Source: an uncultured Candidatus Saccharibacteria bacterium
Lineage (GTDB): Bacteria; Patescibacteriota; Saccharimonadia; Saccharimonadales; JAGQNJ01
Direction: 5' to 3'
NCBI GenBank assembly: GCA_965231045.1
Contig: OZ246406.1
Coordinates: 180,295 to 244,294, forward strand
DNA: 64,000 bases
Within the stretch, counting starts at the first letter, position 1, and the number at the start of each line of letters is the position of its first letter. A program made the position numbers and the translations under genes. The notes beneath the pieces were generated by a model that was given only the letters and a program-made list of their open reading frames with translations, was not told the origin of the DNA and searched no databases. Below, in pieces: positions 12,766 through 59,787 of this stretch.

Positions 12766-12852
12766 AAGAGGCGAAAATGAAACAAGCCGCCGCCGGGACT
12801 ATGACGACGACTCTCTTAAAACGGAGTGAACCTATCCATAAAGGACAACAAT

Positions 12853-13734: not shown

Positions 13735-13776
13735 ATCATCAGGGGTCTATAATATAGGCACCTGGGAAGGAGAACT

Positions 13777-14022: not shown

Positions 14023-14041
14023 GATTAAAGAGGAGTAAAAC

Positions 14042-14982: not shown

Positions 14983-15000
14983 AGAACAAGGAGAACATGA

Positions 15001-18026: not shown

Positions 18027-18030
18027 ATAA

Positions 18031-19424
<1,394 letters not shown>

Positions 19425-19425
<1 letters not shown>

Positions 19426-19640
19426 TGTCAGATGCAGCCTATACCCCCAAGGATGACTTAAACCAATATTTATCTCCTGAACTGGAACAATATTTTAGGC
19501 ATGAGTTAAATATGGGCTACGGTCAGCCAAAAGATGAGGTTGATCCTGAGTTCGGGCACACGAGAGTTGCTGGTGAATACATCGGCACTGATATAGATAC
19601 TCAAGTGCCTGATGACATAAGGGAGATTACGGGAGAATGA
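19425..19640 (+). CDS. hypothetical 71-aa highly acidic protein inserted between atpD and atpC
   Basis: TAATG overlap with the atpD stop. GAGG at 19414-19417. ATGA overlap with the atpC start. No family recognised. Confidence 0.5.
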
Positions 19641-20068
19641 TTCGCTTTGAGCTTGTAACTCTTGATGGCACCAAGTATAGCCAGGATGTATATGAGGTTC
19701 GTTTGCCTACCCCAGACGGAGAGATAGGCGTTTTTACGGACCATATGCCACTCGTTACTATTGCTACTCCAGGGATAATCTTAGTTCGTCCAAAGCAAAG
19801 CACCCCAGATGATTTAGAAGAAGTCTTTGCAACCAATGGCGGTGTAATTGAAATTTCTGATAACGTCGTGCGTGTATTGGTAGACGAAGCTGACCATGCC
19901 GAGGACATTAATGAGAAAGAAGCTCTTGAGGCCCATGAGCGTGCCCTTAAACTTAAGAGCGAGGCTAGAGATCAAGTATCACTTGAGGAAGCCCAAAGTC
20001 TTGTTGATCGTAGCGCTGTTCGCTTGCGGGTTGCCGAGCTCAAGCGTCACCGTCGCGTTCGACATTAA
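19637..20068 (+). CDS. atpC: F0F1 ATP synthase subunit epsilon
   Basis: N-terminal beta-sandwich sequence (LVTLDG...VRLPTPDGEIGVFTDHMPLVT) plus a C-terminal helical hairpin. Confidence 0.9.
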   Translation: MIRFELVTLDGTKYSQDVYEVRLPTPDGEIGVFTDHMPLVTIATPGIILVRPKQSTPDDLEEVFATNGGVIEISDNVVRVLVDEADHAEDINEKEALEAHERALKLKSEARDQVSLEEAQSLVDRSAVRLRVAELKRHRRVRH

Positions 20069-45591: not shown

Positions 45592-45651
45592 ATAATTTCC
45601 TTACTTCTTAATTTATCGACCTAGATTGTAAAAGTTCGGTGTTCCAAAGTA

Positions 45652-45679
45652 ATAAAAAAGTCTTTGGATGGCCAAAGAC
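45652..45679 (-). terminator. Rho-independent terminator between ilvA and rplJ
   Basis: gtctttgg / ccaaagac perfect 8-bp stem, 4-nt loop, followed on the minus strand by a U6-7 run. Confidence 0.7.
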
Positions 45680-45830
45680 TAAAAACGTGTATACAAAACA
45701 AAAAGTTGACTTGTACCTCGGTGGCAAATTAAGCTTTCGCAGCCACTGTCTTTGGCAAACAAGATAATATTAACAGATAGAGCTTCTTGGGTCAACACCT
45801 TTGGAAAAATGGATTTTGATCTGGCTCACT

Positions 45831-47366
45831 TTATTGGCTAAAACGATCAATTTCTGCCTCAGGAACGGGAGCGTGCCACTTAGTATGAGTTGCTAAAACT
45901 GTCTCTAAACTTTGGGTATGAGGCGCTTGGAACCCAATTAGCACTTTTCCGCGGTCACCACCGTTATTGCGATATTGGAAAAGGCTAATGTTCCAGCGTT
46001 GTCCAACATGCGTTAAAAATTCTGTAAGCGCCCCGGGCCGTTCTGGAAATTCAAGCTCGTAAAACGCCTCTTCACCGCGTGTTGTATCATGACAAGCTGT
46101 CCCAAGAAGATATTTGCTATATTCGGCGAACGAGCTAGCCGATATATCATCAAAATTATATCCGTTGTCAGCAAGTTTAGTTTTAAAGTTTTCAAGATCG
46201 TCTTGATTACTAATTTCTACTCCCACCATAAAACGTGCTTTATTTGGATCAGTAAGACGATAACGAAACTCTGTAATACTATGACCATTTATGACATCCC
46301 TACACAATTCTAATAAGGCGCCGGCTCGTTCAGGCAAGTCAATTATGAATTGCCCCTGTTTGTGTCTGCCAATCTCACTACGTTCGACAATGGCCTGTAG
46401 TCTTGAGAATGACATATTCGCTCCCGAACATATAGCAACTGGAAGTATGTCACCAACTGTTTTTGCAAAGTCACTATACTGTGCAATGCCTGCAATGGCT
46501 AAAGCGCCGGCAGGTTCCAGAATACTTCTTGTTTCATTGTAGAAAGCTTCAATTGCCGCAGAAATTGCATCGTTATCAACTGTAATCACTTCATCCACGT
46601 ATTGTTTTGCCATATTGAAAGTGAGATCGCCAACTTGTTTTACGGCAACACCATCAGCAAAGATTCCCACGTGATCAAGTGTAACGGGGTAGCCTGCTTC
46701 TAACGATAGTTTCATGGCATCACTATCCTCTGGCTCAACACCCACGATTCTTATATGCTGAGTATCATTTCTATTTTTGAAATAAGATGCGATACCAGCG
46801 ATTAAACCTCCACCCCCAACCGGTACAAACACGTGCGATACAGCTGTTGTATAACGAGCAATTTCGTGTGCAACTGTTGCTTGGCCGGCAATAACATCAG
46901 GGTCATCAAAAGGATGCACGAAACTCATATTAGTTCCTGATAATAAACGTTGGCTTGCTTCATATGCGTCAGAGTAGCTGTCACCCTCAAGTATGACATG
47001 GCCACCTAGTCTTTTGACTGCATCAACTTTAATCATAGGGGTAGTTCTTGGCATAACAATTGTTGCCTTTGTCCCAACCTCTCGTGCAGCAAATGCCACA
47101 CCCTGTGCATGATTGCCAGCACTTGCGGCAAGCACACCTTCTTCTAGAACATTTTCGGGTAATTTCAAAATTGCATTAAGTGCCCCCCGAACCTTAAAAG
47201 AATGTACTTCAGTCAGGTCTTCACGCTTAAGGAGTAATTCCATTCCGAGCTCTTCTTGAAGTATAGGGGCACTTTCTAAAGGGGTCGGAGGTATATAAGT
47301 CCCGATGCGTTCGGCTGCCATTTCGGCTTCCTGGATAAATTTGTTAGCCGGCATAAGCTTACTCAT
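45831..47366 (-). CDS. ilvA: Threonine ammonia-lyase (biosynthetic-type IlvA with two C-terminal regulatory domains)
   Basis: PLP-lysine motif SFKVRGA and the glycine loop GGGGL. 511 aa with a duplicated ACT-like tail. Confidence 0.9.
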   Translation of the reverse strand: MSKLMPANKFIQEAEMAAERIGTYIPPTPLESAPILQEELGMELLLKREDLTEVHSFKVRGALNAILKLPENVLEEGVLAASAGNHAQGVAFAAREVGTKATIVMPRTTPMIKVDAVKRLGGHVILEGDSYSDAYEASQRLLSGTNMSFVHPFDDPDVIAGQATVAHEIARYTTAVSHVFVPVGGGGLIAGIASYFKNRNDTQHIRIVGVEPEDSDAMKLSLEAGYPVTLDHVGIFADGVAVKQVGDLTFNMAKQYVDEVITVDNDAISAAIEAFYNETRSILEPAGALAIAGIAQYSDFAKTVGDILPVAICSGANMSFSRLQAIVERSEIGRHKQGQFIIDLPERAGALLELCRDVINGHSITEFRYRLTDPNKARFMVGVEISNQDDLENFKTKLADNGYNFDDISASSFAEYSKYLLGTACHDTTRGEEAFYELEFPERPGALTEFLTHVGQRWNISLFQYRNNGGDRGKVLIGFQAPHTQSLETVLATHTKWHAPVPEAEIDRFSQ

Positions 47367-47524
47367 TAGAAATCCTTAGTATTTAAAAACAAAACCGCAT
47401 TCTTGTGGGGTTGCTCTTAATGTTCGACAAATAAACTCTTAGCCCCGTGTAGTGTCCTACCAATAACACTAATAATTATTGGTTGAGTTATTGTTATATA
47501 GATTGCACTTATTTCAGTTGTTTG

Positions 47525-47791
47525 TCAAGCAGGAAGGTTAGCCCTTATTTCCCAATAGCTTTGCTCAGGCTGCACGGAGACTTTTGTTACATCAACAGTG
47601 TCTCGTACTGGTGCGTTACCACTGCCACGACTAACTTTAGCTAGCAACTTTGGGTCAACATCACCACTTAGACGAGCCATACGAATCGTGTGCTCAATCT
47701 CTGCTCTTACGTCCTTATCGGTACGATCGACTGTTGTGTCTCCACTCAAAATAGCTCGATGTTTCTCACCAATTTGTTTAATCCTATCCAT
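47525..47791 (-). CDS. hypothetical protein, 88 aa
   Basis: AGGAGA Shine-Dalgarno upstream of the ATG at 47791. No motif recognised. Confidence 0.5.
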   Translation of the reverse strand: MDRIKQIGEKHRAILSGDTTVDRTDKDVRAEIEHTIRMARLSGDVDPKLLAKVSRGSGNAPVRDTVDVTKVSVQPEQSYWEIRANLPA

Positions 47792-47823
47792 TTCTATTCT
47801 CCTAATATTAAAAAGACTTCTTA

Positions 47824-47893
47824 TTGAAGCCTGATTTTAGGGCTGTACTAAAGCGAATTTCGCTCAGGCTTCAACACTTGCGAAGCACAGCCC
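47824..47893. ncRNA. Pseudoknot-capable structured element (unassigned; possible cis-regulatory RNA)
   Basis: 11-bp stem between 47824-47834 and 47864-47874. Inner hairpin gcga/tcgc. The loop segment gggctgt (47840-47846) is complementary to acagccc (47887-47893), which lies outside the stem. Confidence 0.35.
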
Positions 47894-47971
47894 GTTAAGG
47901 CCGAGGAGAAGATTTAGAGACTTCGCAATGATACCTGACATATCTGCCGATTGTACACTTAGGTAATTGGC

Positions 47972-48000
47972 TTGACAAGACCCGCTCACAGGAGTAAATT
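47972..48000 (+). promoter_or_regulatory. Candidate sigma70-type promoter of the 48156 operon
   Basis: Consensus TTGACA (47972-47977), 17-nt spacer, TAAATT (47995-48000). Confidence 0.5.
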
Positions 48001-48120
48001 AGTTCCTCGTGGCTACATTACACCAAACAATTGTGAAGATCTGGCAATACCGCCCATATGGTATTGTGCTCGTCTTTGCCTAATTGGTTGGATCTGTAGT
48101 TTAATAACGTAAACGAGTAC

Positions 48121-48152
48121 AAGCCGGATCCAACAATAAGGGACCGGCTTTT
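48121..48152 (+). terminator. Terminator-like hairpin inside a 5' leader (candidate attenuator)
   Basis: aagccgg / ccggctt stem followed by TTTT, ending 4 nt before the ATG at 48156. The upstream gttggatc (48087-48094) is complementary to gatccaac (48127-48134). Confidence 0.5.
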
Positions 48153-48155
48153 ATA

Positions 48156-49244
48156 ATGCATATGTCAGAACAATTACTAGAAATAACCTGTGATTTTACC
48201 GCTCCAGAAGTAGTACTGGATTCTTTTGTTGATCCAGAAACAAGCGAACCATTAAGTGAACTACTCAAATGCGAGTCAGTACAACTTCTTCACAAGGCTC
48301 AGAGTGAAGGGCTTGATGATATTGATGCACTGGCAGAGTTAGAACAGCTTGCACTGTATGATGGCATTGAAGCTGTTAGAGCTTGTGTCAAATATGAGCC
48401 TGGTAAAAAACCATGGCAAGAACAGCCGACAGGAGATTGTTTTACTTATACTTGGTTAATCTCAGATGTTGCTACAACACTTGGCTTTGATAACAAAATA
48501 GCATTTTGTAATGGGCACGCCTTTAATCTTATCGCTACGCCATCAGGTAAGTTTCATATGATTAGTGGTGAAACAAAGCCGATGTGGCTATTTGACGTTT
48601 TAGGCAATGTTTATGGCAAAGATGCTTTACCTGATCTTACAAACTTGTTTTCTGCAGCGTCAAGCCTTGAATATTATTCAATGTATACAAGAGGATTAGA
48701 AGCATACAGCGAACGAATCCATAATCAGGGTAAAAAATTGCATTTACCTTGGGTTGGCGATGATTTGCCCGCTGCAGCTGTGATGGATCCGGATACTGGA
48801 AAACAGGCGTTATTCACATATACTTGCTTTCAATCTGAATTATACTGTTCGTCACCAACAATGAGAGGGGTCAGGACCAGTCTTAACGCCTTAAGAGGAA
48901 TTAACCCTCAGGTTGAGACACGGGAACGTATTAATGACGATTTACGACAATTTAGACGACTTGTTAAGGCTTGGACGAACGACTCTTCATTAACGGATGA
49001 ACAGATTGTCGATTGTATAGCAAAATATACTGCGATAATGCCTGATACGAAAAGTATGAACATTTTCGAGGGTGATTGCCTTAGGATTATCGGCACAGTA
49101 CGACAACATGTTGCTCCACTTGAACTAGCCGCAGCAAGCTACCAAGCGGCTGCAAGAAAAACTAAGAAAACAGATACTACCTTGCTTGGAAAAATTAACG
49201 CCAACAATCAACGACTTAATGAATTTAATGGAACATCACAATGA
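48156..49244 (+). CDS. hypothetical protein, 362 aa, with a possible transglutaminase/papain-like Cys-His core
   Basis: TGDCFTYTW followed 26 aa later by NGHAFNLI resembles the G-x-C...H-x-W/F core of transglutaminase-like cysteine peptidases (weak, by eye). No signal peptide. Confidence 0.55.
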   Translation: MHMSEQLLEITCDFTAPEVVLDSFVDPETSEPLSELLKCESVQLLHKAQSEGLDDIDALAELEQLALYDGIEAVRACVKYEPGKKPWQEQPTGDCFTYTWLISDVATTLGFDNKIAFCNGHAFNLIATPSGKFHMISGETKPMWLFDVLGNVYGKDALPDLTNLFSAASSLEYYSMYTRGLEAYSERIHNQGKKLHLPWVGDDLPAAAVMDPDTGKQALFTYTCFQSELYCSSPTMRGVRTSLNALRGINPQVETRERINDDLRQFRRLVKAWTNDSSLTDEQIVDCIAKYTAIMPDTKSMNIFEGDCLRIIGTVRQHVAPLELAAASYQAAARKTKKTDTTLLGKINANNQRLNEFNGTSQ

Positions 49245-49612
49245 ATGACATTATGAGTACTGCCGAACAACTTTCATTTAATGATGTAAGACCCGAATTA
49301 GATCCTTCAACAATCGAGTCACGTGCCTTTAGTGATGCAAGTAACATTGCCGAACATTTTGCAAGATATGGTGATGGTGCTGAGCAAGACATGGGACAAC
49401 GTTACTTCTTTTTTGAACATCCCTTGCATTATGCAACTGAGAGATCACTAGTGAGTATTTTGGAGATTGAGGCGACTCAGATATTTGAGTCAAGAGATAT
49501 ACCTGAGGTTACAGTATATAAGTTAGGTGATGCTTTTATCTTTCGTGAAGAGATTGCATATGAAGACAGACCTGGAGCTGTTCTGTACACTGGCTACATA
49601 GATTGTAATTAA
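49241..49612 (+). CDS. hypothetical acidic protein, 123 aa, translationally coupled to the upstream gene
   Basis: ATGA stop/start overlap at 49241-49244. No motif recognised. Confidence 0.5.
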   Translation: MNDIMSTAEQLSFNDVRPELDPSTIESRAFSDASNIAEHFARYGDGAEQDMGQRYFFFEHPLHYATERSLVSILEIEATQIFESRDIPEVTVYKLGDAFIFREEIAYEDRPGAVLYTGYIDCN

Positions 49613-51927
49613 TCGATTTGTTGAAGCTTGAACTGAGTATAACGTTCGGCTGCTAGGCGTGTAAGTTTCTCGTCTTCGCCTTGGTTGACGAACTTCATTG
49701 ATTCGGCCATCAAAGGATGAACTTCAGCCAATTTCTCATGCATTTGCTGGACTAGCTTTCGATAACCAGGATGCCCCTGCGGCGATGTTCTGAGCTCGTG
49801 AAAATGAAAAGCTTCGCGAGCATTATAAGTGATCTTCCAGCGCATTTTATGCCCCAATAATGTTGCGTACTGGGCCTCCAATTGGTAGCCAGCAGATTGA
49901 AGTTTACTGTAGAGCTCAAGGCTAAGATCAAAAGCTTTTTCGAAAATGTCAGTTAGTCCGGCGTCTTCGACCAACTGCGGAATGTCATAACCAAATCTTG
50001 GGGTTAACATTTGCCACTGAAGATCATCAACAATACGATGGCGCTGCAAGTCGCGGAAAATACCATAGTCGCACATTATATCCCAGCTATAGTGAGCCTT
50101 TTCCAGTGCTCTGCCAGGTTTGTGTCGACGATTTAGACGTTCGCCCATATATGTCTTGAATACTTTTTCGCGCTTAATGTATGGTAGTCTTTCAACTTCA
50201 TTCTGTATATCTTTTAATGATAGGCTGCTGTGTTCATACAACATATCCGGGACAAGATCTAACTCATTTTTTGGCCAGTAAGAACTCAGGGTTACTGGCT
50301 GCAGATCATTGCTGTAGGTGTCAGGTAGTATTTCACTGGTCAGCTCTTTAACCGCTTTGTAGGTATTTGCTCGGTATGCAATCATTGCGCCACCTCTGTC
50401 CGGCTTGTCGGCACGTTCTAAGAATGTTGGAATAACCTTACGAGCTTCGTTTAACAGTTTCTGGCCTGTTGATCGTGCTTCGGGCAGTTCATCACTCAGT
50501 AGATGCATAATTAAGCTCTCTAGGGCTTGCCCAGAAGCATAAATGCCTACTGTGGCTGTTGTCGCAACCGGAAGTAGCGGACGAGCCGCATCGCAGGCTT
50601 GAGCCCTTACGGCACCTTTCCAGGCAGCATCACGCTCATCTTCAGGTGTGTCTGAATGATCGCGAACATAACTGGTTAGCTGATGTACCAATTCAGAATA
50701 AAGCCCAAAAATTTTATTCATCGTTTCTTCATATGTGTGCGCCGTCCGAGCATCAAGGTGCTTAGGTGTGTGGTACTTATACTTACCGTGGCTATCTTTT
50801 TGATCGAAGTAAATGTATCTAGTCGATTGCTCTAAGTAGGCGGCCAAACGACCCCACTCAAGCTTCTTCGTAAGTAAATTTGAAGCATTTTCAACTACTA
50901 CATGCTGGCCAACCAACTGCTGCACCGAATCGTCACCATAAGCTGTAATAACCCGTTTCATCAATGCCTCATCTTTACCGGCCGCTAAAGCGAATTCATC
51001 CAGCAGGGTTATACGCATATCATCACCGCGTCGACTCAATCGGGCCATTGCTGCGGAAATTGTAACAGTGCTCAGCTTGTCGTTTTTGAAGGCATAAACA
51101 TCATCGTGAACGTTAGTGATAGCATCCTGCAAGAAATCCATACCATCTTCAGTAATTTCATAAATACCATCAGTTTTAACAACGTATGGGTTTACGTTAG
51201 TTGACGTTTGTTTAGTTACTGCGCTTTTTGCGGTCTTTGATGGTTTTGGGGGTAGCAATGGCTCAATATTTTCCCAAACATATTTATGGATTGTCTCCCT
51301 ATCCATCATTGAGCTACCACGAACGCAATCAATGCGTGAAAAATCTTTAGGGAATAGCTGACATAAGTCATCGTAAACGTCGACAGATTTTTTAAGGTGG
51401 GTCAAATCAGCTTCATGAAGATCTCGCTTTTTGTCGGTATAACTCCTGGTTTCTTTCTCATCAACTAGTCTTTGAGCAATCTCGGCCGGGACACGTAAAA
51501 CAATATTTCGGTCTGGTCGTGGTATGCCAAGCATTTGAAACTCTAAATTATCAAGCCATATAAAAAAGCCTCTGCGTTCTTCTGGATGGGAGAACTTCGT
51601 ACCTTGGTGGGCCATATTTGAACCGGTAAAACGGTTGGCAAGTACAACTTTACCCGAGTCTAATGCTTTCTTCATTTCTTTGGCCGCTTCATAGCGATCC
51701 AAAGCAAAAAATAGTGAGCCTGTATAGGGACCTACTTCGTCGGCAGTTCCATACTTGCCGTTTAGGTATTCTTTTACAAAGTAACTTGACGGCTCTTCGT
51801 AACGAGGAAAATCAAATGTTGCAATATCATAACCTTCGGCTTCAAGTCTTTTAGCCAAAAGTTTAAATTGCGTCCCCTTTCCGGAACCATCAGTACCTTC
51901 TAAGGTAATAAATAATCCGTTACTCAT
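49609..51927 (-). CDS. Fusion protein: thymidylate kinase (N-terminal) plus long ThyX-like FAD-dependent thymidylate synthase region (C-terminal)
   Basis: The N-terminus has the Tmk P-loop LEGTDGSGKGTQ, a DRY-type motif and a lid. The C-terminal 500 aa or so contain FRDLQRHR (ThyX RHR motif) and a degenerate first repeat (ARLSRR). Confidence 0.75.
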   Translation of the reverse strand: MSNGLFITLEGTDGSGKGTQFKLLAKRLEAEGYDIATFDFPRYEEPSSYFVKEYLNGKYGTADEVGPYTGSLFFALDRYEAAKEMKKALDSGKVVLANRFTGSNMAHQGTKFSHPEERRGFFIWLDNLEFQMLGIPRPDRNIVLRVPAEIAQRLVDEKETRSYTDKKRDLHEADLTHLKKSVDVYDDLCQLFPKDFSRIDCVRGSSMMDRETIHKYVWENIEPLLPPKPSKTAKSAVTKQTSTNVNPYVVKTDGIYEITEDGMDFLQDAITNVHDDVYAFKNDKLSTVTISAAMARLSRRGDDMRITLLDEFALAAGKDEALMKRVITAYGDDSVQQLVGQHVVVENASNLLTKKLEWGRLAAYLEQSTRYIYFDQKDSHGKYKYHTPKHLDARTAHTYEETMNKIFGLYSELVHQLTSYVRDHSDTPEDERDAAWKGAVRAQACDAARPLLPVATTATVGIYASGQALESLIMHLLSDELPEARSTGQKLLNEARKVIPTFLERADKPDRGGAMIAYRANTYKAVKELTSEILPDTYSNDLQPVTLSSYWPKNELDLVPDMLYEHSSLSLKDIQNEVERLPYIKREKVFKTYMGERLNRRHKPGRALEKAHYSWDIMCDYGIFRDLQRHRIVDDLQWQMLTPRFGYDIPQLVEDAGLTDIFEKAFDLSLELYSKLQSAGYQLEAQYATLLGHKMRWKITYNAREAFHFHELRTSPQGHPGYRKLVQQMHEKLAEVHPLMAESMKFVNQGEDEKLTRLAAERYTQFKLQQID

Positions 51928-52627
51928 ATTTTATACCCTTTACTTTTATTGGATCGCGTCGCTTATCCTTATAAGCGCGTGGCAACATTTGTTCTGGAGT
52001 CCAATCACTAATTAAATCATTCAAGTTGTCACTGTAGCCTGTTTGATATTTGCCGCTGAGCTTCTTATATTCGCTATCAACTGGGCCCGTTTCATAAAAG
52101 ACCATCTGGGCAACGCGTTCACCAACTGGCAGGACAACACTTTCGTGTTCATTCATGTTATATATTTCCATAGTCCAGCGGTTTATATACCCAGGATCCC
52201 CCCATCCAGCATCAAGACAAACAGCAACGCCATTACGGCCCCATGTACTGCGGGCCTGCATGGTGCTAGTCCCAGGCGCTTTAATGCCAATAAATTCATG
52301 GGTGTGGGCAAGAATTCGTTCTCCTGGACGAAGAACAATAATTCTTTGTTTAAGAGGAATGTTCTTAAAAGGTCGGCGACCATGTTTTTTGGCCCATTGT
52401 TCATGAACTTCTGCCTGATAAGGGCCGCCACCAAAGTATTGTTCGACGGAGGCTTTATCAAACGGATTATAAAACCCACCTTCGCTTGGCCGCTCTGTCC
52501 TGTAGAACCAGTTACCTAGTGTTACATCTACGCTGCTGCCAGCAATATGTTTTTCAACATAAGGATGGAACACGATGTGACCATCTTTAATAGCTTGTTT
52601 GATCTGTCTATTACTATAAACTGACAC
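51920..52627 (-). CDS. dcd: dCTP deaminase / dUTPase-superfamily protein
   Basis: N-terminus SNRQIKQAIKDGHIVFHP...GSSVDVTLG and GWGDPGY...MEIYN motifs. It overlaps the downstream fusion gene by 8 nt. Confidence 0.85.
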   Translation of the reverse strand: MSVYSNRQIKQAIKDGHIVFHPYVEKHIAGSSVDVTLGNWFYRTERPSEGGFYNPFDKASVEQYFGGGPYQAEVHEQWAKKHGRRPFKNIPLKQRIIVLRPGERILAHTHEFIGIKAPGTSTMQARSTWGRNGVAVCLDAGWGDPGYINRWTMEIYNMNEHESVVLPVGERVAQMVFYETGPVDSEYKKLSGKYQTGYSDNLNDLISDWTPEQMLPRAYKDKRRDPIKVKGIKYE

Positions 52628-52708
52628 CTTTTCCCCTTATTTAGTCCTTACATTGTACGCAATAAATACTCAACCATACAAGGGTGAAGGCTGATATTAC
52701 AACAGGAT

Positions 52709-53464
52709 TTAGCAATGACTGGTATAGTATGTCTTTTTAAGCTGACCAGTTTTAAGGTCATTTATGAATATTTCTGCGCAACGTGTAACTTCATCTATAC
52801 CTGCATCGCTGACTACGGTAACATCAATGTCTATGTTGTCTCGTTCTCGCTCTGTAGGATCTAGTGCATCATACTGCAGGTGTCCCGGTCGATAGACTTT
52901 TACAATCGTGCCACCAGCAGTATGAACGATCTTACCATCATTAGGGTACCTCAAACCGCCTATAGTGCAGAGTTTTACTCCTTGTTGGCCAGCAAGATTA
53001 ACGCGCTTGATTATCTCGCGATACCATATACCTGGCTCAACAAACCGTACTAAGTAACCGCCAAGCCATTGCAGTATTGGTCGGTAATTTTCCTTATTTT
53101 CTAGTGTAATCTTGTGATGTTGTAGTTCTGAGTCATGAGCTAGGTTATCTATGTGTAGAAACAACTTTTCGTATTCAACTGGATGTCGAAGAACTCTCTC
53201 TGGGTCTAGTTTAATTTGATCAAAGTTACATTTAACACCAAATTTTTGGAGTAAGATCGCTGGTAAAGTACGTAGCCAGTTGTTTATGGATTCAATGTCG
53301 TCTCTCTCTGGTACTTTATCCAAAGAAGCATGCATTGCATCCACAACTTCAGCAATAATCATGCTAGATTCAAAATGAACGAACGAAGGTTCAAGCTTGT
53401 GTAAAGCAGCAGAAAATGTACTTTTGCCGTGCCCAATAGGCCCGGTAAATCCAATGATCATCAT
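52709..53464 (-). CDS. P-loop nucleotide kinase resembling phage T4 gp1 dNMP kinase
   Basis: Walker A GPIGHGKST. GGLRYPNDGKIVHTAGGTIVKVYRPG...DPTE parallels T4 gp1 PDTRQDHEMDAARAMGATVIHVVRPG...HITE. Confidence 0.55.
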   Translation of the reverse strand: MMIIGFTGPIGHGKSTFSAALHKLEPSFVHFESSMIIAEVVDAMHASLDKVPERDDIESINNWLRTLPAILLQKFGVKCNFDQIKLDPERVLRHPVEYEKLFLHIDNLAHDSELQHHKITLENKENYRPILQWLGGYLVRFVEPGIWYREIIKRVNLAGQQGVKLCTIGGLRYPNDGKIVHTAGGTIVKVYRPGHLQYDALDPTERERDNIDIDVTVVSDAGIDEVTRCAEIFINDLKTGQLKKTYYTSHC

Positions 53465-53479
53465 ATGCTCTTAAGTATA

Positions 53480-54436
53480 CTATACTTCGCTTAAGGCAAT
53501 AGCGATACTCGGGCCCATGGTAGTCGTTAGATGGATTGCTTGTATGTAAGAACCTTTAAGTGAGCTTGGTTTTGCAGCCTTGATGCTCTGAAGAACAGTT
53601 TGCAGATTTTCGAGTAGTTGTGCAGATGTAAAATTAGTTTTACCAATTCCAAGGTGAACAATACCAGTGCTATCAACACGATACTCTACTTTACCGGCTT
53701 TAGCTTCCTTAACCGCTTTTGCTACATCGGCAGCTACAGTACCACTCTTTGGGTTAGGCATAAGTCCTTTTGGTCCTAGTATGCGAGCATATTTACCAAG
53801 TTTTGCCATCATCATTGGTGTAGCAATCAAAACATCAAAATCCATCTGACCCTTATCAAGTTGTTGCAAAAACTCATCACCACCTGCAATGTCAGCTCCT
53901 GCAGCTTTAGCTTTTTTAACATCATCAACATCAGCAAAAACTGCTACTTTAAGACTTTTGCCAGTTCCTGCAGGTAAAACTACATTATCACGAATGTTTT
54001 GATCGGCGTGGCGTGGGTCAACACCTAATTTAACGTGCAGCTCAACCGAGGAGTCAAATTTAGTAGTATTGGTTTTAAGAGCTAATTCAACTGCTTCCTT
54101 TAGAGAATACTGTTTAGTTTTATCAATAAGCTTTGCTGCTTCGCGATATTTCTTACTTCGTCGTTCTAGACGACTACGTGTAGGTTTAACAGGTTTTTTA
54201 GCCTGTTTAGGCTCTTCGTCTTCTGTCTTTGAAGCCTTACGCTCTTCTTTTGCTTCTTTTGCCTCGGCCTCTTTTAAGGCTTTCGCACTACGCTTACCGG
54301 CTTTAGCGACTTCTTTGTCATTAACTTCGTTATTGATTGGTGCATCAGTACCTTCGGCTTCAACTTTATTTACTTCTTTTGAAGTATCTTCAGCTGTTTT
54401 TACTTCTTTCTTAGTTGCTTTCTTGGCTTCTGACAT
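53480..54436 (-). CDS. rplA: 50S ribosomal protein L1 with an N-terminal Lys/Glu/Ala-rich extension of about 90 aa
   Basis: The L1 core starts near [29 protein letters not shown] Shine-Dalgarno before the ATG at 54436. Confidence 0.92.
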
Positions 54437-54483
54437 GATTTCTCCTTTCGTGGTACTAGCGGCGTTATCACCTCCCACAAATA

Positions 54484-54723
54484 TTATTGATTTAGTTTAC
54501 TACTCACTTGATCTAAATACCATTGTGCCTGATAGCTATTGCCCTGTGATGCAAGTGCTTTAAGACGGTCAAGCACAGCCGTATCAAATTCTTTAGTCTC
54601 GTTAAAATTATCGAGTGTGTGCCTTGCCGCCCGTCTATCGGCTTCAGTAAAAATCAAACCTTCGGTTTCACCTGCCATAAGTTCAATTTTTCCAAAATTG
54701 GATTGACTAGAGTACTTAGACAT
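54484..54723 (-). CDS. hypothetical 79-aa protein inserted between rplK and rplA
   Basis: Intact ORF that starts 3 nt after the stop of the upstream ORF. No family recognised. Confidence 0.5.
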   Translation of the reverse strand: MSKYSSQSNFGKIELMAGETEGLIFTEADRRAARHTLDNFNETKEFDTAVLDRLKALASQGNSYQAQWYLDQVSSKLNQ

Positions 54724-54726
54724 ACT

Positions 54727-55125
54727 TTATTCCGAATGATCAAACAACTGGTTTCTAGCTGCAAGAAATGATGGATCCGTAAACTGGGCACCAGCTAGTC
54801 TTTCATCAAGCCAGGCTTTTGCTCCATCTGATGCATCGCAAAAATCATATACATCAGTTACCGAAAGCACTGCCCTTTTCCCTAACGCTGTGTCGGGACA
54901 TATATCTGTAGCTGTTTCTGAGTTAGAAAATTCACCTGCATCAAGTCTTGCTTGCAGTTCATCTGCATCTAGGGTTTTACCACGAGCCATACTGCGAAAC
55001 TGTTTTGCTTTTTCTTCTGCATCAACTGCCGCGGCTTCCCATGCGCTTGCTTCGCCAAGTTTAATTCTAATAGAAAGACGTACGTCATCTACAGTCGTTT
55101 CTTTCATTGGTGCTTCTGCGGACAT
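54727..55125 (-). CDS. hypothetical 132-aa acidic protein inserted between rplK and rplA
   Basis: TAATG overlap with the rplK stop. GAGG Shine-Dalgarno inside the rplK 3' end. No family recognised. Confidence 0.5.
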   Translation of the reverse strand: MSAEAPMKETTVDDVRLSIRIKLGEASAWEAAAVDAEEKAKQFRSMARGKTLDADELQARLDAGEFSNSETATDICPDTALGKRAVLSVTDVYDFCDASDGAKAWLDERLAGAQFTDPSFLAARNQLFDHSE

Positions 55126-55550
55126 TATTCTACCTCAACACCCATACTGCGAGCTGTGCCAGCAACCATCTTCTTAACGGCTTCAATATCATCGGCGTTC
55201 ATATCTTTGGCTTTTTCTTCAGCAATAGCTGTAAGATCGGCATCAGATAGTTTCTTTGGGATTTTTTCGCTGTTTGGCTTCCCTGAGCCCTTTTGAATAC
55301 CCAGTTTGGCACGAATTAGGTCATCGGTTGGCTGGCTAACTACACGAAAATCCATAGAACGATCGTCATAAATAGTAATGTGAGCTGTTAGAGTTCCGCG
55401 CATTTCCTTGGTCTGGTCGTTAAATGGGGTTATAAAGTCCATCATATTAACACCATACTGACCGAGTGTTGAGCCTACTGGAGGAGCTGCGCTAGCTTTT
55501 CCAGCTGGGATTTTCATCTTAAGATTTGCAGTTACTTTTTTCGCTGCCAT
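55125..55550 (-). CDS. rplK: 50S ribosomal protein L11
   Basis: KMKIPAGKASAAPPVGSTLGQYGVNMMDF is the L11 N-terminal signature. AAGGAGA Shine-Dalgarno. Confidence 0.95.
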   Translation of the reverse strand: MAAKKVTANLKMKIPAGKASAAPPVGSTLGQYGVNMMDFITPFNDQTKEMRGTLTAHITIYDDRSMDFRVVSQPTDDLIRAKLGIQKGSGKPNSEKIPKKLSDADLTAIAEEKAKDMNADDIEAVKKMVAGTARSMGVEVE

Positions 55551-55728
55551 ATTTTCTCCTTGTAGGGGTTGAAGACAAACCTACGGTTTTTCTCCACGCA
55601 CCAGGCAAAAAATGTGATTTTTGCTCGGGCCGCTCTTCTCCCTTTTAGAGCCTACTTTAGAAGCACTTGTAGGCTGATGTGCGTAACTAGTAGATTCTAC
55701 TACAATCCACCTCTGTCGTCCAGTGAAT

Positions 55729-55971
55729 TTATCGCCTTCTATCAGCTTCAGAAGCAAGTACTTGCTCAAGACCCAGATAAATCTGTCCAAATGAGCCACC
55801 TTCATTTGGATCATCTCCGACAGTGGCGCAGTGTCTTACAAAACTAATCTTGACCAACTCTCTTATCTGGTCTATGTCTCGCCTTTGTACGGCACCGTTT
55901 GCTTCTATATTCAAGTCCCCTGCTGACATGTGCTCAATTTTATGTATTTCTTCAGGGCTAAAAGGAGGCAT
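55729..55971 (-). CDS. hypothetical 80-aa protein immediately downstream of nusG
   Basis: The ATG lies 2 nt after the nusG stop. No clear Shine-Dalgarno and no family recognised. Confidence 0.4.
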   Translation of the reverse strand: MPPFSPEEIHKIEHMSAGDLNIEANGAVQRRDIDQIRELVKISFVRHCATVGDDPNEGGSFGQIYLGLEQVLASEADRRR

Positions 55972-55973
55972 GG

Positions 55974-56516
55974 TTATACTCGCTTGACTTGCAAACTATC
56001 AAGTTCAACAGGTGTTTCACGGCCAAACATATTGACCAATACCTTAAGTTTGCCCTTCTGTTCGTCAATTTCATTAATTGTGCCGTCGAAGCCTTTGAAT
56101 GGACCATCTATAATATTTACGACTTCACCAACTTTGTAGTCGATCTTGTGTTTAGGCTGGTCAAGACCCATTCGTTTATTGATCTTATCCATTTCGTCTT
56201 TACTAATAGGTGTTGGTTCATTCCCAGTCCCCACAAAACCAGTAACATTCGGTGTATTTCGAACAATATACCAAGCATCTTCAGTTAATTTCATTTCGAC
56301 AAGTACATATCCTTGGAAAATACGTTTTTCGACGACTCGTCGCTTACCATTTTTGATTTCAATCATTTTTTCCTTTGGCACAAGAACCTGGAATATCTTA
56401 TCCTTCATATCCAAGCTATCTGCACGTTGCCTGATAGATTCGGCAACCTTTTCTTCATAACCACTATAAGTGTGGATAGCGTACCATTGTTTTGATGTAT
56501 CGTAACGTCGTGACAT
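55974..56516 (-). CDS. nusG: Transcription termination/antitermination factor NusG
   Basis: WYAIHTYSGYEEKV NGN domain and a C-terminal KOW domain (GEVVNIIDGPFKGFDGTI). Confidence 0.95.
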   Translation of the reverse strand: MSRRYDTSKQWYAIHTYSGYEEKVAESIRQRADSLDMKDKIFQVLVPKEKMIEIKNGKRRVVEKRIFQGYVLVEMKLTEDAWYIVRNTPNVTGFVGTGNEPTPISKDEMDKINKRMGLDQPKHKIDYKVGEVVNIIDGPFKGFDGTINEIDEQKGKLKVLVNMFGRETPVELDSLQVKRV

Positions 56517-56908
56517 TAGCTTAATAATACCTTTCTAAATACTTTATCTAAACCATAGTCCACCATTGCAACAAATAAGGCGAAAATAATAGCAAAGACA
56601 AATACGGCAATAGTTAGCTGGATTGTTTGCCTTCTATTAGGCCATGTTACTTGTTTAAGCTCCTTCCAGCTCTCTCGAAAATAACTTGGGACAAAACTCC
56701 GACGTTTGTTAAGGAATCTACCAACCTTATTGTCAGGCAACGGTAAATAAACTTCCTTTTTCCCGAAATCAACGACTTTTCTTACTGGTTTTGCAGCTTG
56801 AGTAGCAGTTGCTTTCAGTTTTCGTGGTTTTGCAGATTTACTTCGTGACTGTTCCGCCTTTTGACGAAACGAAGTGCCTTTGCTAGATTTTTTAGTATCT
56901 TTAGCCAT
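56516..56908 (-). CDS. secE: Preprotein translocase subunit SecE with a basic N-terminal extension
   Basis: C-terminal ELKQVTWPNRRQT followed by a single TM. TAATG overlap with nusG. Confidence 0.85.
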   Translation of the reverse strand: MAKDTKKSSKGTSFRQKAEQSRSKSAKPRKLKATATQAAKPVRKVVDFGKKEVYLPLPDNKVGRFLNKRRSFVPSYFRESWKELKQVTWPNRRQTIQLTIAVFVFAIIFALFVAMVDYGLDKVFRKVLLS

Positions 56909-57027: not shown

Positions 57028-57294
57028 ATGTGTATGGTTGACATCCAGGACTTGCCTATTTACTACGATACCGAAGAGATTGAATCGCCACCTAGTTTTC
57101 GTTCACGAGCTATATGTGCGATTGGTTATACTTGCGCGTTAATATCTGGTGTGAGCGGCGGTGAAGCAATTGGTGAACTAGTGCGTGGCGATAACTCGCT
57201 AGCTTTGATAGAAGGAATTACTGCGGTTACTTGTCAATTTGGGGGTCAAATGACTCTACGTCTAGCCAAAATGGTGGAGTCAAATCATTCCTGA
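57028..57294 (+). CDS. hypothetical protein, 88 aa (weakly supported)
   Basis: AGGTGG lies 6 nt before the ATG. It overlaps the convergent kinase gene by 10 nt. No motif recognised. Confidence 0.3.
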   Translation: MCMVDIQDLPIYYDTEEIESPPSFRSRAICAIGYTCALISGVSGGEAIGELVRGDNSLALIEGITAVTCQFGGQMTLRLAKMVESNHS

Positions 57295-58400
57295 TTTAAA
57301 TCAGGAATTCTAATCCGAAAGGTACTCCCCTTATTGAGCTCACTTTCAAGATCTAATTCGGCATGAATTAGACGAGCTAGCTTCATTGTTACATATAGGC
57401 CTAGACCAGTTCCATTGTTTTTTCGAGTCCTGAAGTCTTCTGAGCGGAAAAACTTATCGAATACACGCTCCTTATCGCCCTGGCTTATGCCTATCCCGGT
57501 GTCACGAACATAAAATTCAACGCCACCTTCTTTGGCTATTGCTCCCATAGTAACCGAACCCTGTTCGGTATATTTAATGGCATTGGTTACAAAGTTCTGG
57601 ATGATTTCACGAACATATAATTTGCTTGATTTTAGAAGCTCTAGTTTGGGGTCAAGTTCAAGATTAAGTTGTAAGCCTTTTTGTTCAGCTTGAGGTCTAT
57701 AGGTATTAACTAGACCTTGGAGTAGTTCATGAATGTTAATTGGCTCAACCTCAACTGCTAGTTTACCTCTTTCGGCTCGCGAAAGCGTTGAAAGATCATT
57801 GATCATATCACTAAGAAAGATAATTTGGTCATGGGCTTGAGTTAGCGCATCAATAATTTGTTTGCTGCTATTGGACTTCTGGGCTATCAAGAGAGCATTA
57901 CTAATGTTACCCTCTGAAATAGCAATTGGCGTTCTCAGCTCATGACTAACAACACTAATGAATTCATCCCTTTCCTCTTCTAACGATTTTTCTCGGGTAA
58001 TATCACGAAGCAGTAGAACATAGCCGCGCTCACCACGTTGGCCAAAACCAAGATGTACCGGCGCAATGCTTAGATAAAGGTTGATTGTACTTTTGTCCGG
58101 ATACTCAATTAAATAATCTCGGTATGACACAGGTGTTTTGGCATCATAGACTAGTTTCTGGATGTTTACTTCTTGCTTATTTTTGTCGACTAACTTGAAC
58201 AAACCAAGCAATTGTTTGCCCGTCATCGAACTATTAACGTCAAGAATGTTCAAAGCAGCACCGTTATATATGACCACTCTTTGTTTTTGATCAACAGCTA
58301 TAACACCGTCGGCCATGCTATTAATTAAGCTAGTTAGACGTTCATGATCGACAGCCCCACTTCTTGTTGTTGGCAGAATACTTGAAAGATTTGGACGCAT
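57285..58400 (-). CDS. Cytoplasmic PAS-domain sensor histidine kinase
   Basis: H-box SHELRTPI. N, G1 and G2 boxes (NFVTNAIKYT, DTGIGI, GTGLGL). No TM. No response regulator adjacent. Confidence 0.85.
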   Translation of the reverse strand: MRPNLSSILPTTRSGAVDHERLTSLINSMADGVIAVDQKQRVVIYNGAALNILDVNSSMTGKQLLGLFKLVDKNKQEVNIQKLVYDAKTPVSYRDYLIEYPDKSTINLYLSIAPVHLGFGQRGERGYVLLLRDITREKSLEEERDEFISVVSHELRTPIAISEGNISNALLIAQKSNSSKQIIDALTQAHDQIIFLSDMINDLSTLSRAERGKLAVEVEPINIHELLQGLVNTYRPQAEQKGLQLNLELDPKLELLKSSKLYVREIIQNFVTNAIKYTEQGSVTMGAIAKEGGVEFYVRDTGIGISQGDKERVFDKFFRSEDFRTRKNNGTGLGLYVTMKLARLIHAELDLESELNKGSTFRIRIPDLNQE

Positions 58401-58427
58401 GGGTACATTATGCCATACTTGCTTATG

Positions 58428-59126
58428 CTATTGTGGTAATAATTGTGGATGAAATTGATGCATTTCCTTGCGTAGACTCTTAGCATCAGGCACTAAATCA
58501 GTTAATGCTTGCCAAAACTCTGAACCGTGATGCATGTGCTTTGTGTGCGTTAACTCATGAAAAATCACATAATCAATGTATTTCCATGGAAGTTGGATCA
58601 AGAATATGTTAAATACTAAGTTCTTGTTAGCATCACAGCTGCCCCAACGCCGTTTCAACTTTTTAAAATGCAGAGTATTAAAATCTAGACCGAATTCGTA
58701 CGACAAATCATGAATACGAGATGTTAAAAGTTCCTTTGATTCCTTAAGTAGGGCTCTCTCACAGGCTTTTAGGATAGTGTCTTGGTTCTCAACACTTTCA
58801 ACATCAGAATTGCGCGGAATTAACACTTTTACTTCTCTGTCTGTAACTCGTGTTTTCGGCTTATTGATGTCAGCTGACTCAATAGTAAGTTGATGTTGTT
58901 TGCCAATTAGAGCCCCAGTTGCCAAAGTTGGCCTTTGTGTAATGTGTTCGTGGATCCATTCTTTTCGACTGTACACAAACTTTACAGCTTCGCCGTAACT
59001 AACCCAATTAGGGAGCGTTACTCGAACGGAATGCCCTTGAATGTGTATTCTTACAGAGCCTGTTCCACGCCGTTTTTGGAAATAAACCATGCCGACATCT
59101 TTGACTTCGAGCTGTTTAACAGCCAT
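58428..59126 (-). CDS. DUF45/YgjP-like zinc metallohydrolase (M48-like HExxH)
   Basis: RWGSC and HELTHTKHMHHGSEFW motifs. Confidence 0.8.
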   Translation of the reverse strand: MAVKQLEVKDVGMVYFQKRRGTGSVRIHIQGHSVRVTLPNWVSYGEAVKFVYSRKEWIHEHITQRPTLATGALIGKQHQLTIESADINKPKTRVTDREVKVLIPRNSDVESVENQDTILKACERALLKESKELLTSRIHDLSYEFGLDFNTLHFKKLKRRWGSCDANKNLVFNIFLIQLPWKYIDYVIFHELTHTKHMHHGSEFWQALTDLVPDAKSLRKEMHQFHPQLLPQ

Positions 59127-59130
59127 GGCC

Positions 59131-59787
59131 TTAACGGATGGTAATATTTCGTCGGCTTAGATCAACACGGCCAGCTGACGGCACGAGATTGACCATACCC
59201 GGCTTAATTACACCCTCTGATACCTTCTCAGCGTTAGTTAGGTTGAGTTCAAAAAGTCGTTTCATCAATGTACTTCGTTGCATAGCAAAAGAATGTTTAC
59301 CACTAAGTACAAAAAAATCTTCATCCTTGGTTGGGTGCTGCATGGTATTTATATAGCTATCAAACTCAGTCCGATTAAAATCTCGGGCAAATTTATCATC
59401 GATTTTACGCTTATCACGCTTATTGACTCGAGCAAATGCACCCTCAATATCAATCTGGAACCAAGCTAATAAGTATTGGGCATGTTGTTTGCGGGCTGTT
59501 TCACGTAGTTTTCTGCGTTGTGAGACCCTATTAACATCTGCATCATAGATAACACTAACACCGGCACTCAGAAACTCATCCATCATATACTCAACTAAAT
59601 GATCGACTACTTGATTTTCTGACTTATCAAATCGAGGTTTTTGAAATAACTCAGCGCGAATTCTATCTGATTGAATGTGAACAGCTTGTAAGTTGTCGCA
59701 TAACTGTCTGGCAAAAGAACTCTTACCAGAACCTGGAAAACCGTAAAGTACTAATAGAAGTGGTTTATTCAAAATTGTTTTTGACAT
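59131..59787 (-). CDS. P-loop kinase (AAA_33-like), paralog 3
   Basis: Walker A GFPGSGKSS. Overall layout resembles 8134-8649. Confidence 0.7.
   Translation of the reverse strand: MSKTILNKPLLLVLYGFPGSGKSSFARQLCDNLQAVHIQSDRIRAELFQKPRFDKSENQVVDHLVEYMMDEFLSAGVSVIYDADVNRVSQRRKLRETARKQHAQYLLAWFQIDIEGAFARVNKRDKRKIDDKFARDFNRTEFDSYINTMQHPTKDEDFFVLSGKHSFAMQRSTLMKRLFELNLTNAEKVSEGVIKPGMVNLVPSAGRVDLSRRNITIR

Follow-up and report, generated by a model that had tools for sequence, protein, structure and literature searches.

The rplK-rplA genes and the genes of the atp operon are textbook cases of operons that are tightly coupled and do not vary. In Escherichia coli, rplK and rplA are coupled by short stop-start spacing (PMC12548453). 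In Actinobacteria, Cyanobacteria, and Chloroflexi, the RNA element bound by the ribosomal protein L1 lies immediately ahead of rplA; in Proteobacteria it is located before rplK, and many Firmicutes have both sites (Fu et al. 2013, PMC3616713). Here we describe the secE-nusG and rplK-rplA cluster on the minus strand of a 64,000-nucleotide (nt) stretch of a Saccharibacteria (Saccharimonadales) genome (contig OZ246406.1; hereafter, the window), in which three small open reading frames (ORFs) are interleaved with the core genes, namely ORF80 between nusG and rplK, and ORF132 and ORF79 between rplK and rplA (Table 1). The best matches of the L11 protein encoded by rplK all come from metagenome-assembled genomes of Saccharibacteria (Saccharimonadales). 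We propose, with a probability of roughly 0.6, that the three ORFs are genuine genes of small acidic proteins, predicted to be translated in coupling with their neighbors, and that they represent fast-turnover cargo at two permissive junctions.

The locus resembles the E. coli L11 operon in having rplK and rplA in the same order on one predicted transcript, with short stop-start spacings. In E. coli, rplA begins 3 nt past rplK, and repression by L1 acts at the rplK leader and is relayed by coupling, whereas in the window two additional cistrons (211 codons) separate rplK from rplA, and an L1-operator-like hairpin together with a strong Shine-Dalgarno sequence stands directly before rplA. The ATG of ORF80 is found 2 nt past the nusG stop (GTATAACCATG), and its own stop 6 nt ahead of the -35 hexamer that precedes rplK. 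The ATG of ORF132 and the rplK stop have one base in common (TAATG), a GAGG Shine-Dalgarno sequence being located 8 nt upstream, within rplK (duplex -7.0 kcal/mol), and ORF79 starts 3 nt past the ORF132 stop. The rplK gene has a strong Shine-Dalgarno sequence, AAGGAGAAAAT (duplex -8.3 kcal/mol, as against -4.0 kcal/mol for ORF80, which has no good one), and rplA has its own, AAAGGAGAAATC (duplex -9.0 kcal/mol; GGAG at 54445-54442). The likeliest rplA start is the ATG at 54436, with AAAGGAGAAATC ahead of it and a product of 318 amino acids (aa); the longest-ORF rule leads instead to the GTG at 54478. All positions and spacings of the three ORFs relative to nusG, rplK, and rplA agree to the base with the initial annotation of this DNA, which had also singled out ORF80 as lacking a Shine-Dalgarno sequence.

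Coding potential and conservation of the inserted ORFs

Codon usage was evaluated by a log-likelihood score trained on 39 long genes of the window. The in-frame scores of ORF80 (0.19), ORF132 (0.27), and ORF79 (0.20) fall within the range of held-out real genes (0.14-0.50), and the other five frames of the three ORFs score -0.01 or lower (-0.19 or lower for ORF80). Thus, the codon usage of all three ORFs is host-like and frame-specific; the score of the rplK leader is negative in every frame.

A 19-kb Logan contig from a strain 96.3% identical to the window (L081) bears homologs of all three ORFs in the same gene order, each of them intact, with no indels and no stop codons. Nei-Gojobori estimates of the ratio of nonsynonymous to synonymous differences (pN/pS) between the two strains, which are based on few differences, amount to 0.12 for ORF79 (P=2e-4 against neutrality), 0.39 for ORF132 (P=0.078), and 0.28 for ORF80, the last calculated from 4 differences and not significant. 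For the three ORFs pooled, pN/pS is 0.23 (P=7e-5) vs. 0.04 for the pooled core genes, which indicates a significantly weaker constraint on the ORFs (Fisher P=1.3e-4). Substitutions in ORF79 show a third-position bias (3, 1, and 9 at the first, second, and third codon positions, respectively), and no excess divergence in the ORFs is seen between the window and L081. Ten more contigs match the window at 100% identity and are hence uninformative on within-strain polymorphism; an identical ORF132 protein is encoded by 17 contigs, which stem from more than 10 sequencing runs.

The arrangement goes beyond chance, since the ORFs are intact in L081, their codon scores are in the range of real genes, and the enlarged gaps of relatives are filled with ORFs as well (see below). 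In our judgement, ORF79 is almost certainly protein-coding, ORF132 is very likely so, and ORF80 is likely so. The three ORFs are real, and their start/stop spacing is tight; the description of the inserts in the initial annotation as acidic, soluble, and coupled to core genes is borne out. Searches of Pfam, PHROG, PADLOC, and NCBIfam returned no known family for ORF80, ORF132, ORF79, and the family of the latter, or for the three small ORFs that interrupt the atp operon of the window.

Inserted ORFs in related genomes

The same junctions were measured in 80 species-level loci of relatives (L001-L080), all of them metagenome-assembled genomes, in which a gap of at least 200 nt was regarded as enlarged and the longest-ORF rule was applied mechanically to call same-strand ORFs (minimum 50 aa). 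The nusG-rplK gap is enlarged in 57 of 76 loci and contains an ORF in 56 of these 57, usually starting 0 to +10 nt from the upstream stop; the rplK-rplA gap is enlarged in 54 of 79 loci and contains an ORF in every one of the 54, with a usual start at -4 to +9 nt. The neighboring secE-nusG junction, which served as a control, is uninterrupted in all 75 relatives measured, with no gap of 200 nt or more (0/75), a median distance of 9 nt, and a maximum of 117 nt. By these counts, most Saccharimonadales use the same two junctions, and inserts are wanting in about 25-30% of species.

Measured from the upstream stop to the next conserved regulatory block, the ORFs fill a median of 99% (nusG-rplK) and 95% (rplK-rplA) of the DNA, and many nusG-rplK ORFs read on to a stop codon within the conserved promoter block. 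Shine-Dalgarno motifs precede 57% of the rplK-rplA ORFs and 20% of the nusG-rplK ORFs, compared with 3% of random positions. When the window is aligned with other species, DNA homology ends at approximately the nusG stop, 10 nt before the rplK start, at the rplK stop, and 45 nt before the rplA start.

The junction ORFs are acidic, with a median isoelectric point (pI) of 4.8 and a pI below 6 in 84% of cases. The antisense ORFs of the same gaps and nucleotide-shuffled controls have a median pI of 9.5-9.9, with 2-10% below 6, and among the larger proteins of the window 35% fall below pI 6. Because both kinds of controls are basic, the acidity of the inserts is indicated to be a selected property, maintained by selection, rather than a by-product of base composition. 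The two junctions differ in the type of cargo, as hydrophobic, transmembrane-like segments are concentrated in the ORFs that follow nusG (27/76, vs. 2/70 of the rplK-rplA ORFs; ORF80 has none) and are almost missing from those of the rplK-rplA gap and of the atp operon. The hydrophobic nusG-rplK ORFs contain one or two such segments, often Gly/Ala-rich (L004, L008, L010, L021, L041, L055, L057, L058, L070, L080, and others). A comparison of the large junction ORFs of relatives with Pfam and PADLOC gave a single borderline match, to HATPase_c_2 (in L053).

Small acidic ORFs are found at three junctions of the atp operon of the window as well (12826-20068, plus strand; Table 1). Corresponding junctions were surveyed in 80 related metagenome loci (L082-L161), with thresholds of at least 150 nt for the gap and at least 40 aa for a same-strand ORF. 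The atpG-atpD gap reaches this length in 42 of 71 loci and contains an ORF in 41 of the 42; for atpD-atpC, the numbers are 32 of 76 and 26 of 32, respectively. The atp-junction ORFs of relatives are soluble, with a median pI of 4.6-4.7, and none of them is similar to the atp ORFs of the window. Different ORFs occupy the atpG-atpD and atpD-atpC junctions in approximately 35-60% of the related contigs. The initial annotation had drawn the parallel with the atp operon and had suspected a habit of the lineage rather than a one-off event; both suggestions agree with the surveys, in which 110 of the 111 enlarged gaps around rplK hold an ORF and the atp operon is interrupted likewise. The literature searched yielded no account of ORFs interleaved with the operon genes of Saccharibacteria.

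These data also bear on the view that the ORFs are chance open frames in a noncoding leader or spacer, i.e., regulatory RNA. For ORF80, such a view could appeal to the missing Shine-Dalgarno sequence and to the missing conserved homolog. It is at odds with the acidic bias, which the controls do not share, with the occupation of nearly all enlarged gaps by ORFs that start beside the upstream stop, and with the position of the true leaders before rplK and rplA, which are separate, conserved, and located outside the ORFs. Frame-independent conservation, named in the initial annotation as the sign of a noncoding leader, was not what we found, given the frame-specific codon signal and the third-position bias in ORF79, for which this explanation is largely refuted. 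For the three ORFs together, we regard its probability as negligible.

Conserved signals upstream of rplK and rplA

The region between ORF80 and rplK is 99.4% identical to that of L081, which is above any coding stretch. Its conserved block, found by a promoter scan at 55722-55694, consists in the window of TGGACG (55722-55717), a 17-nt spacer, and TAGAAT (55699-55694), followed by GTTACGCAC (55687-55679); of 73 loci aligned upstream of rplK, nearly all have the pattern cTAGACAACAGGGGTAAT.TGTAGTATAAT.....AGTTACGCAC. The block reads as a -35 hexamer, spacer, -10 hexamer, and conserved transcript start, its putative promoter function being deduced from conservation. The spacer ACAACAGGGGTAAT is unusually conserved, and the conserved start GTTACGCAC is followed by a hairpin with a GCTTCA loop in many loci; the conservation of the spacer and the start suggests more than a plain promoter. 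Since this promoter-like block comes after ORF80, ORF80 would form the 3' end of the secE-nusG unit.

The hairpin before rplA has the sequence GUGGGAG-[GGUG AUAA CGCC]-GCUAGUA-CCAC (54450-54478) and occurs once in the window. The arrangement UUGUGGGAG-hairpin-CG-NNNG-N-ACCAC-GAAAGGAG-ATG is conserved in 79 of 80 loci, both those that have inserts and those that have none. The outer helix P1 is invariant, and the inner helix P2 has 22-25 compensatory changes at each of its three pairs. In the alignment, 96% of cells are paired, and double-sided changes occur in 70 cells, compared with 19 +/- 3.7 after shuffling (0/500 shuffles reached the observed value); the covariation score is 0.379 vs. 0.04-0.09 in slid controls. 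By-eye comparison shows that the hairpin has GUGGGAGGC...GCCG...ACCAC in common with an E. coli 60-mer verified as 23S rRNA, a segment that we take to be helix 77/78 of the L1 stalk. No Rfam family matched in this region, even at E-values up to 10. To our knowledge, L1-binding regulatory mRNA has not been reported in Saccharibacteria. The hairpin is probably an L1 autoregulatory operator, of the rplA-proximal type (PMC3616713), to which L1 is predicted to bind.

With an operator and a strong Shine-Dalgarno sequence of its own, rplA would need no E. coli-style coupling to rplK. The initial annotation had assumed autoregulation of the rplK-rplA pair by L1, a scheme that is not apt for this lineage, as the putative operator, a 23S rRNA mimic, is located directly before rplA, downstream of the inserts. 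The rplA-proximal operator would therefore explain why the junction is permissive, and it corrects the premise on which the earlier surprise at the inserted ORFs was based.

The N-terminal extension of uL1, the rplA product (54179-54436, about 86 codons), is rich in Lys, Glu, and Ala; in relatives it comprises 70-138 aa, with a net charge near +1. Such an extension is already known in Saccharibacteria (PMC9297842). The acidic ORFs were considered as possible partners of the extension, an idea that was rejected, as the presence of inserts does not correlate with extension length (rho 0.13, P=0.25), and the correlation with net charge is weak.

Families and turnover of inserted ORFs

The family to which ORF79 belongs is represented by 13 members in the curated alignment and by 16 (among 80 species) when those with a linked second domain are counted, and every member is located in the rplK-rplA gap. 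BLAST clustering placed 15 members in this component, increasing to 16 after iteration with a hidden Markov model (HMM); the phmmer E-values of ORF79 are 7e-9, 3e-8, and 6e-6 against its relatives in L051, L024, and L026, respectively. Q7, S63, and A66 are invariant in the 13 sequences, and Y4, G6, L23, F25, and L54 are conserved in at least 90% of them; ORF79 itself bears every conserved residue. The family motifs are LLFTExDR, S-x-QA-x-YFL, and, close to the N-terminus, Y-x-G-Q. No further ORF separates the family member from the L1 operator and rplA in the window, L004, and L056; other ORFs (e.g., ORF132) are located between it and rplK. A single-sequence AlphaFold2 model of ORF79 (predicted local distance difference test, pLDDT, 72) has a three-helix bundle at residues 27-78 and a disordered N-terminus; the best match among PDB folds is not significant (E 0.8), and a profile search of PDB sequences gave only weak TPR-like matches (E of about 0.2). 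ORF79 is a member of an old, uncharacterized, clade-specific family of Saccharimonadales on which purifying selection acts.

In some relatives, the motifs GDAGPGF ... DPYGAVEDE, with an acidic tail, define a second family, which is encoded just after an ORF79-like gene or forms a fusion with an ORF79-like domain (Table 1); the window has no such domain. This fission/fusion pattern suggests that the two small proteins may work together. The neighbor-joining tree, which is based on three proteins, is rough.

The remaining two ORFs behave differently. Among 5.8 billion clusters, each of the three ORFs has a single cluster of homologs 95-98% identical to it, located on one Logan contig. The only homolog of ORF132 (P0001, 95% identity) remained the only one when 1.84 billion representatives were scanned in full with phmmer, and ORF80 has P0003 (98% identity) as its sole counterpart. 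ORF132 and ORF80 are thus recognizable as species-restricted orphans, either young or diverged past recognition. At the junctions, the DNA of the representatives of the nearest species (L007, L001, L002, and L004) cannot be aligned with that of the window, leaving the ancestry of the ORFs untraceable and an origin in situ not demonstrable. A single-sequence AlphaFold2 model of ORF132 was unusable (pLDDT 43). A 26-nt stretch of ORF132 (55003-55028) is 81% identical to a stretch of rplK (55206-55231), AEEKAK being encoded in both; derivation of ORF132 from the 3' end of rplK was rejected (BLASTP E 0.45, not significant), a chance likeness of purine-rich DNA being most likely. The initial annotation had called all three ORFs unassignable and had asked whether relatives carry them. 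The label suits ORF80 and ORF132, which have no relative beyond the nearly identical strain L081, and no longer suits ORF79; what relatives share is the occupation of the same junctions and the ORF79 family.

Clustering of all 249 junction ORFs, including those of the atp operon, by BLAST, iterative HMM, and hhalign resulted in 203-211 components, none of which spans two junctions, and the small ORFs of the window are mutually dissimilar, with no paralog within the window. Remote homology among inserts of different junctions, for which an all-vs-all comparison had been suggested in the initial annotation, was rejected by BLAST clustering, by iterative HMM, and by hhalign probabilities below 2%. 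As most relatives hold different and mostly unrelated ORFs at the nusG-rplK and rplK-rplA junctions, both look like hotspots of fast turnover. Junction families that are retained at saturated synonymous divergence (dS) have ratios of nonsynonymous to synonymous divergence (dN/dS) of 0.1-0.34.

In close species pairs, the junction ORF exceeds the flanks 3-4 times in synonymous divergence. Between L037 and L042, the rplK-rplA ORF has dS 1.2 and dN 0.72, with a flank dS of 0.19-0.33; between L021 and L026, its dS is 2.2, and that of the flanks 0.6-0.8. The DNA of the first pair is approximately 94-95% identical over 6 kb, and the ORF (L037:4215-4445 vs. L042:4410-4650) only about 55%, with indels, its first 45 nt or so and the L1 operator being conserved, as if the allele had been replaced or had diversified very strongly. 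L021 also has an entire nusG-rplK ORF that is wanting in L026, the breakpoint coinciding with the nusG stop. The excess of ORF over flank dS suggests that divergent alleles may be exchanged by recombination via the conserved flanks.

Anti-restriction and anti-CRISPR proteins that mimic DNA are typically small and acidic. The hyperdivergence of the ORFs relative to the flanks in the two species pairs, as well as the presence or absence of an entire ORF with a breakpoint at the nusG stop, would also be expected of mobile arms-race cargo, i.e., anti-defense, immunity, or antitoxin-like cassettes that are exchanged horizontally into core-flanked hotspots and diversified by selection. This explanation is, however, very improbable in light of the negative PADLOC and PHROG searches and a tblastn search that found no match in 50,697 phage records. 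The search for repeats flanking the inserts gave nothing meaningful, and the ORFs, filling 95-99% of the inserted DNA, leave no space for recombination sites. Each family is bound to one junction, codon usage matches the host, and the comparison with L081 reveals no excess of ORF divergence.

A role as lineage-specific subunits or factors of the ribosome (the L1/L11 stalk) or of NusG and RNA polymerase, co-expressed in matching amounts, would fit the tight coupling of the ORFs to rplK and nusG and the conservation of the ORF79 family, which always adjoins rplA. According to the passage of PMC12548453 that cites Huber et al. 2023, the products of gene pairs coupled by termination-reinitiation are often subunits of one complex, and Saccharibacteria are distinguished by the absence of bL9 and the extended uL1 (PMC9297842). 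Nevertheless, ORF132 and ORF80 are confined to one species and ORF79-like proteins to approximately 16 of 80, although the ribosome and NusG are common to all; the inserts have no ribosomal or transcription-related match in Pfam, NCBIfam, PDB sequences, or PDB folds; equally acidic orphan ORFs are present in the atp operon; and the length of the uL1 extension is not linked to insert presence. On these grounds, the ribosome- or transcription-associated role considered in the initial annotation gains no support and seems improbable to us. The inserts may instead be dispensable, soluble, helical proteins, perhaps binding partners or modulators rather than enzymes and not core subunits of the ribosome or RNA polymerase.

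Genomic context of the cluster

The coordinates of all features are summarized in Table 1. The distance between rplA and rplJ is approximately 7.7 kb (45645-53464, minus strand); besides the nucleotide metabolism genes and acidic orphans listed in the table, this stretch contains a threonine dehydratase gene and ends with the L10 leader (45645-45773), followed by rplJ-rplL. The 772-aa gene appears to encode an unusual Tmk-ThyX fusion. tRNA-Trp and rpmG adjoin secE in many bacteria. In the window, genes for a histidine kinase, a YgjP-like metallopeptidase, and a zeta-toxin/AAA-like kinase (57285-59787, minus strand) are located between secE and tRNA-Trp, with rpmG just past the latter, so that the neighborhood of the cluster is rearranged on the secE side too.

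Table 1. Features of the secE-nusG-rplK-rplA region, the atp operon inserts, and the second motif family. Positions refer to the window unless a locus of a relative is indicated.
Feature	Position	Strand	Description
secE	56516-56908	-	Pfam SecE, E 2.8e-19
nusG	55974-56516	-	Pfam NusG and KOW; stop TAA at 55976-55974
ORF80	55729-55971	-	80 aa, pI 5.0; no Pfam match
Intergenic region ORF80-rplK	55551-55728		178 nt
rplK promoter-like block and leader start	55679-55724	-	Conservation, promoter scan
rplK (uL11)	55125-55550	-	Pfam Ribosomal_L11_N and Ribosomal_L11
ORF132	54727-55125	-	132 aa, pI 4.5, predicted all-helical; no Pfam match
ORF79	54484-54723	-	79 aa, pI 5.2; no Pfam match
L1-operator-like RNA hairpin	54450-54478	-	Directly before the rplA Shine-Dalgarno sequence; covariation
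rplA (uL1)	53480-54436	-	Pfam Ribosomal_L1, E 1.2e-63; NCBIfam rplA_bact over residues 92-317
Deoxynucleoside monophosphate (dNMP) kinase-like gene	52709-53464	-	
dcd	51920-52627	-	
772-aa gene	49609-51927	-	L081 homolog with thymidylate kinase and ThyX domains
Two acidic orphans	48156-49612	opposite strand	
Insert atpA-atpG	16533-16811	+	
Insert atpG-atpD	17751-18026	+	
Insert atpD-atpC	19425-19640	+	
Second motif family	L024:4683-4928		
Second motif family	L054:4791-5003		
Second motif family	L009:4432-4749		
Second motif family, fusion	L018:4432-4830		C-terminal half
Second motif family, fusion	L046:4431-4823		C-terminal half

Discussion

The proposed expression of the inserts follows from the spacings described above. 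ORF80 would be the last cistron of the secE-nusG transcript, translated by termination-reinitiation 2 nt past the nusG stop. ORF132 would be initiated on the rplK stop (UAAUG) via the GAGG inside rplK, and ORF79 by reinitiation 3 nt past ORF132. At the same time, the downstream ribosomal genes appear to be insulated from whatever is inserted before them, rplK by its promoter-like block and leader, kept downstream of ORF80, and rplA by the 23S-mimic L1-operator hairpin and strong Shine-Dalgarno sequence, kept downstream of ORF79. With such signals of their own, both genes would be independent of coupling across the junctions. The turnover of the cargo would be rapid, leaving ORF79 as an old component under purifying selection and ORF132 and ORF80 as components whose constraint is weaker or untestable.

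Several observations weigh against this interpretation. Purifying selection is not established individually for ORF132 (P=0.078) or for ORF80, with its 4 differences; some close pairs of atp-junction ORFs are near-neutral (dN/dS 0.84-0.93); and no match that would point to a function was obtained in Pfam, NCBIfam, PHROG, PADLOC, PDB, or by fold comparison. A few of the ORFs listed for relatives are basic, out-of-frame artefacts over the uL1 extension, produced by longest-ORF calling in metagenome-assembled genomes. The exchange of alleles is deduced from two species pairs, and the contrast may be due in part to a lower dS of the flanks, which are highly expressed.

Part of this evidence would be accounted for if the junction DNA had to be kept open and translated, e.g., for retaining ribosomes on the polycistronic mRNA and avoiding polarity or decay, the encoded peptides being selected solely for harmlessness (acidic, soluble) and ORF132 and ORF80 being functionless. 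Both ORFs are orphans with pN/pS not significantly below 1, and some atp pairs are, as stated, almost neutral; inserted DNA consists of ORFs almost entirely, with many nusG-rplK ORFs ending at the stop in the promoter block; and the charge of the inserts is alike though their sequences differ. Translated spacers of this kind would not be expected to keep the motifs and predicted fold of the ORF79 family over deep divergence, nor to have the low dN/dS of the retained families. Moreover, the nusG-rplK ORFs precede the separate promoter-like block of rplK and hence have no downstream cistron to protect, the original insertion of DNA is left unexplained, and approximately 25-30% of species do without any insert. 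We therefore consider this explanation unlikely and prefer the interpretation of the ORFs as genes of coupled acidic proteins.

A more speculative extension of the preferred interpretation, which we put forward tentatively and regard as less likely than not, is that stop-proximal junctions of the most highly expressed core operons (nusG-rplK, rplK-rplA, atpG-atpD, and atpD-atpC) act as nurseries of new proteins in Saccharimonadales. New or imported sequence would be expressed at once by coupling, filtered for acidity and solubility, and then lost, replaced by divergent alleles, or fixed as a family, as in the case of ORF79; ORF132 and ORF80 would be newborn genes caught early. Bacteria of the candidate phyla radiation (CPR) have an excess of small proteins, with a peak of protein length at 100-150 aa (PMC9297842), which such nurseries, if they exist, would help to explain.

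It was unexpected that approximately 70% of the species of this clade have small, mostly unrelated, acidic, coupled ORFs at the same junctions, with the adjoining secE-nusG junction always intact. The locus provides a comparative system for studying the rise and filtering of new small proteins in very reduced genomes, the way in which insulation by an operator and a Shine-Dalgarno sequence directly before rplA renders an operon permissive to insertion, and the source of the many small unknown proteins of CPR bacteria (PMC9297842). As regards annotation practice, such ORFs should be retained as genes, and annotations of Saccharibacteria should include the L1-operator-like hairpin.

Comparison with known systems

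The hairpin shares with rplA-proximal L1-binding mRNA (PMC3616713) a short stem, an internal asymmetry, mimicry of the 23S rRNA L1 stalk, and a position adjoining the rplA ribosome-binding site; it differs in forming the downstream border of an insertion hotspot as well.

Accessory-gene hotspots and phage "morons" are characterized by variable cargo at one chromosomal site between conserved genes. The inserts described here resemble the hotspots in being variable cargo between core genes that is replaceable by recombination in the conserved flanks. In contrast to hotspots and morons, they comprise one to four tiny ORFs with no promoter, terminator, or mobility genes of their own, embedded in an operon and coupled to its translation. 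Integron gene cassettes form arrays of small, promoterless ORFs, often orphan and in one orientation, that are expressed from upstream. The inserts are likewise small, promoterless, often orphan, and uniformly oriented, but they have no attC-like repeat, integrase, or space for a recombination site, and their families are each bound to a single junction.

Finally, the inserts resemble orphan small genes and the products of de novo gene birth in that they are short, restricted to a lineage, devoid of homologs, and less constrained than old genes. They differ from these in their host-like codon usage and strong acidic bias, and in their location at fixed, recurrently used sites within highly conserved operons, where they borrow the expression signals of their neighbors.

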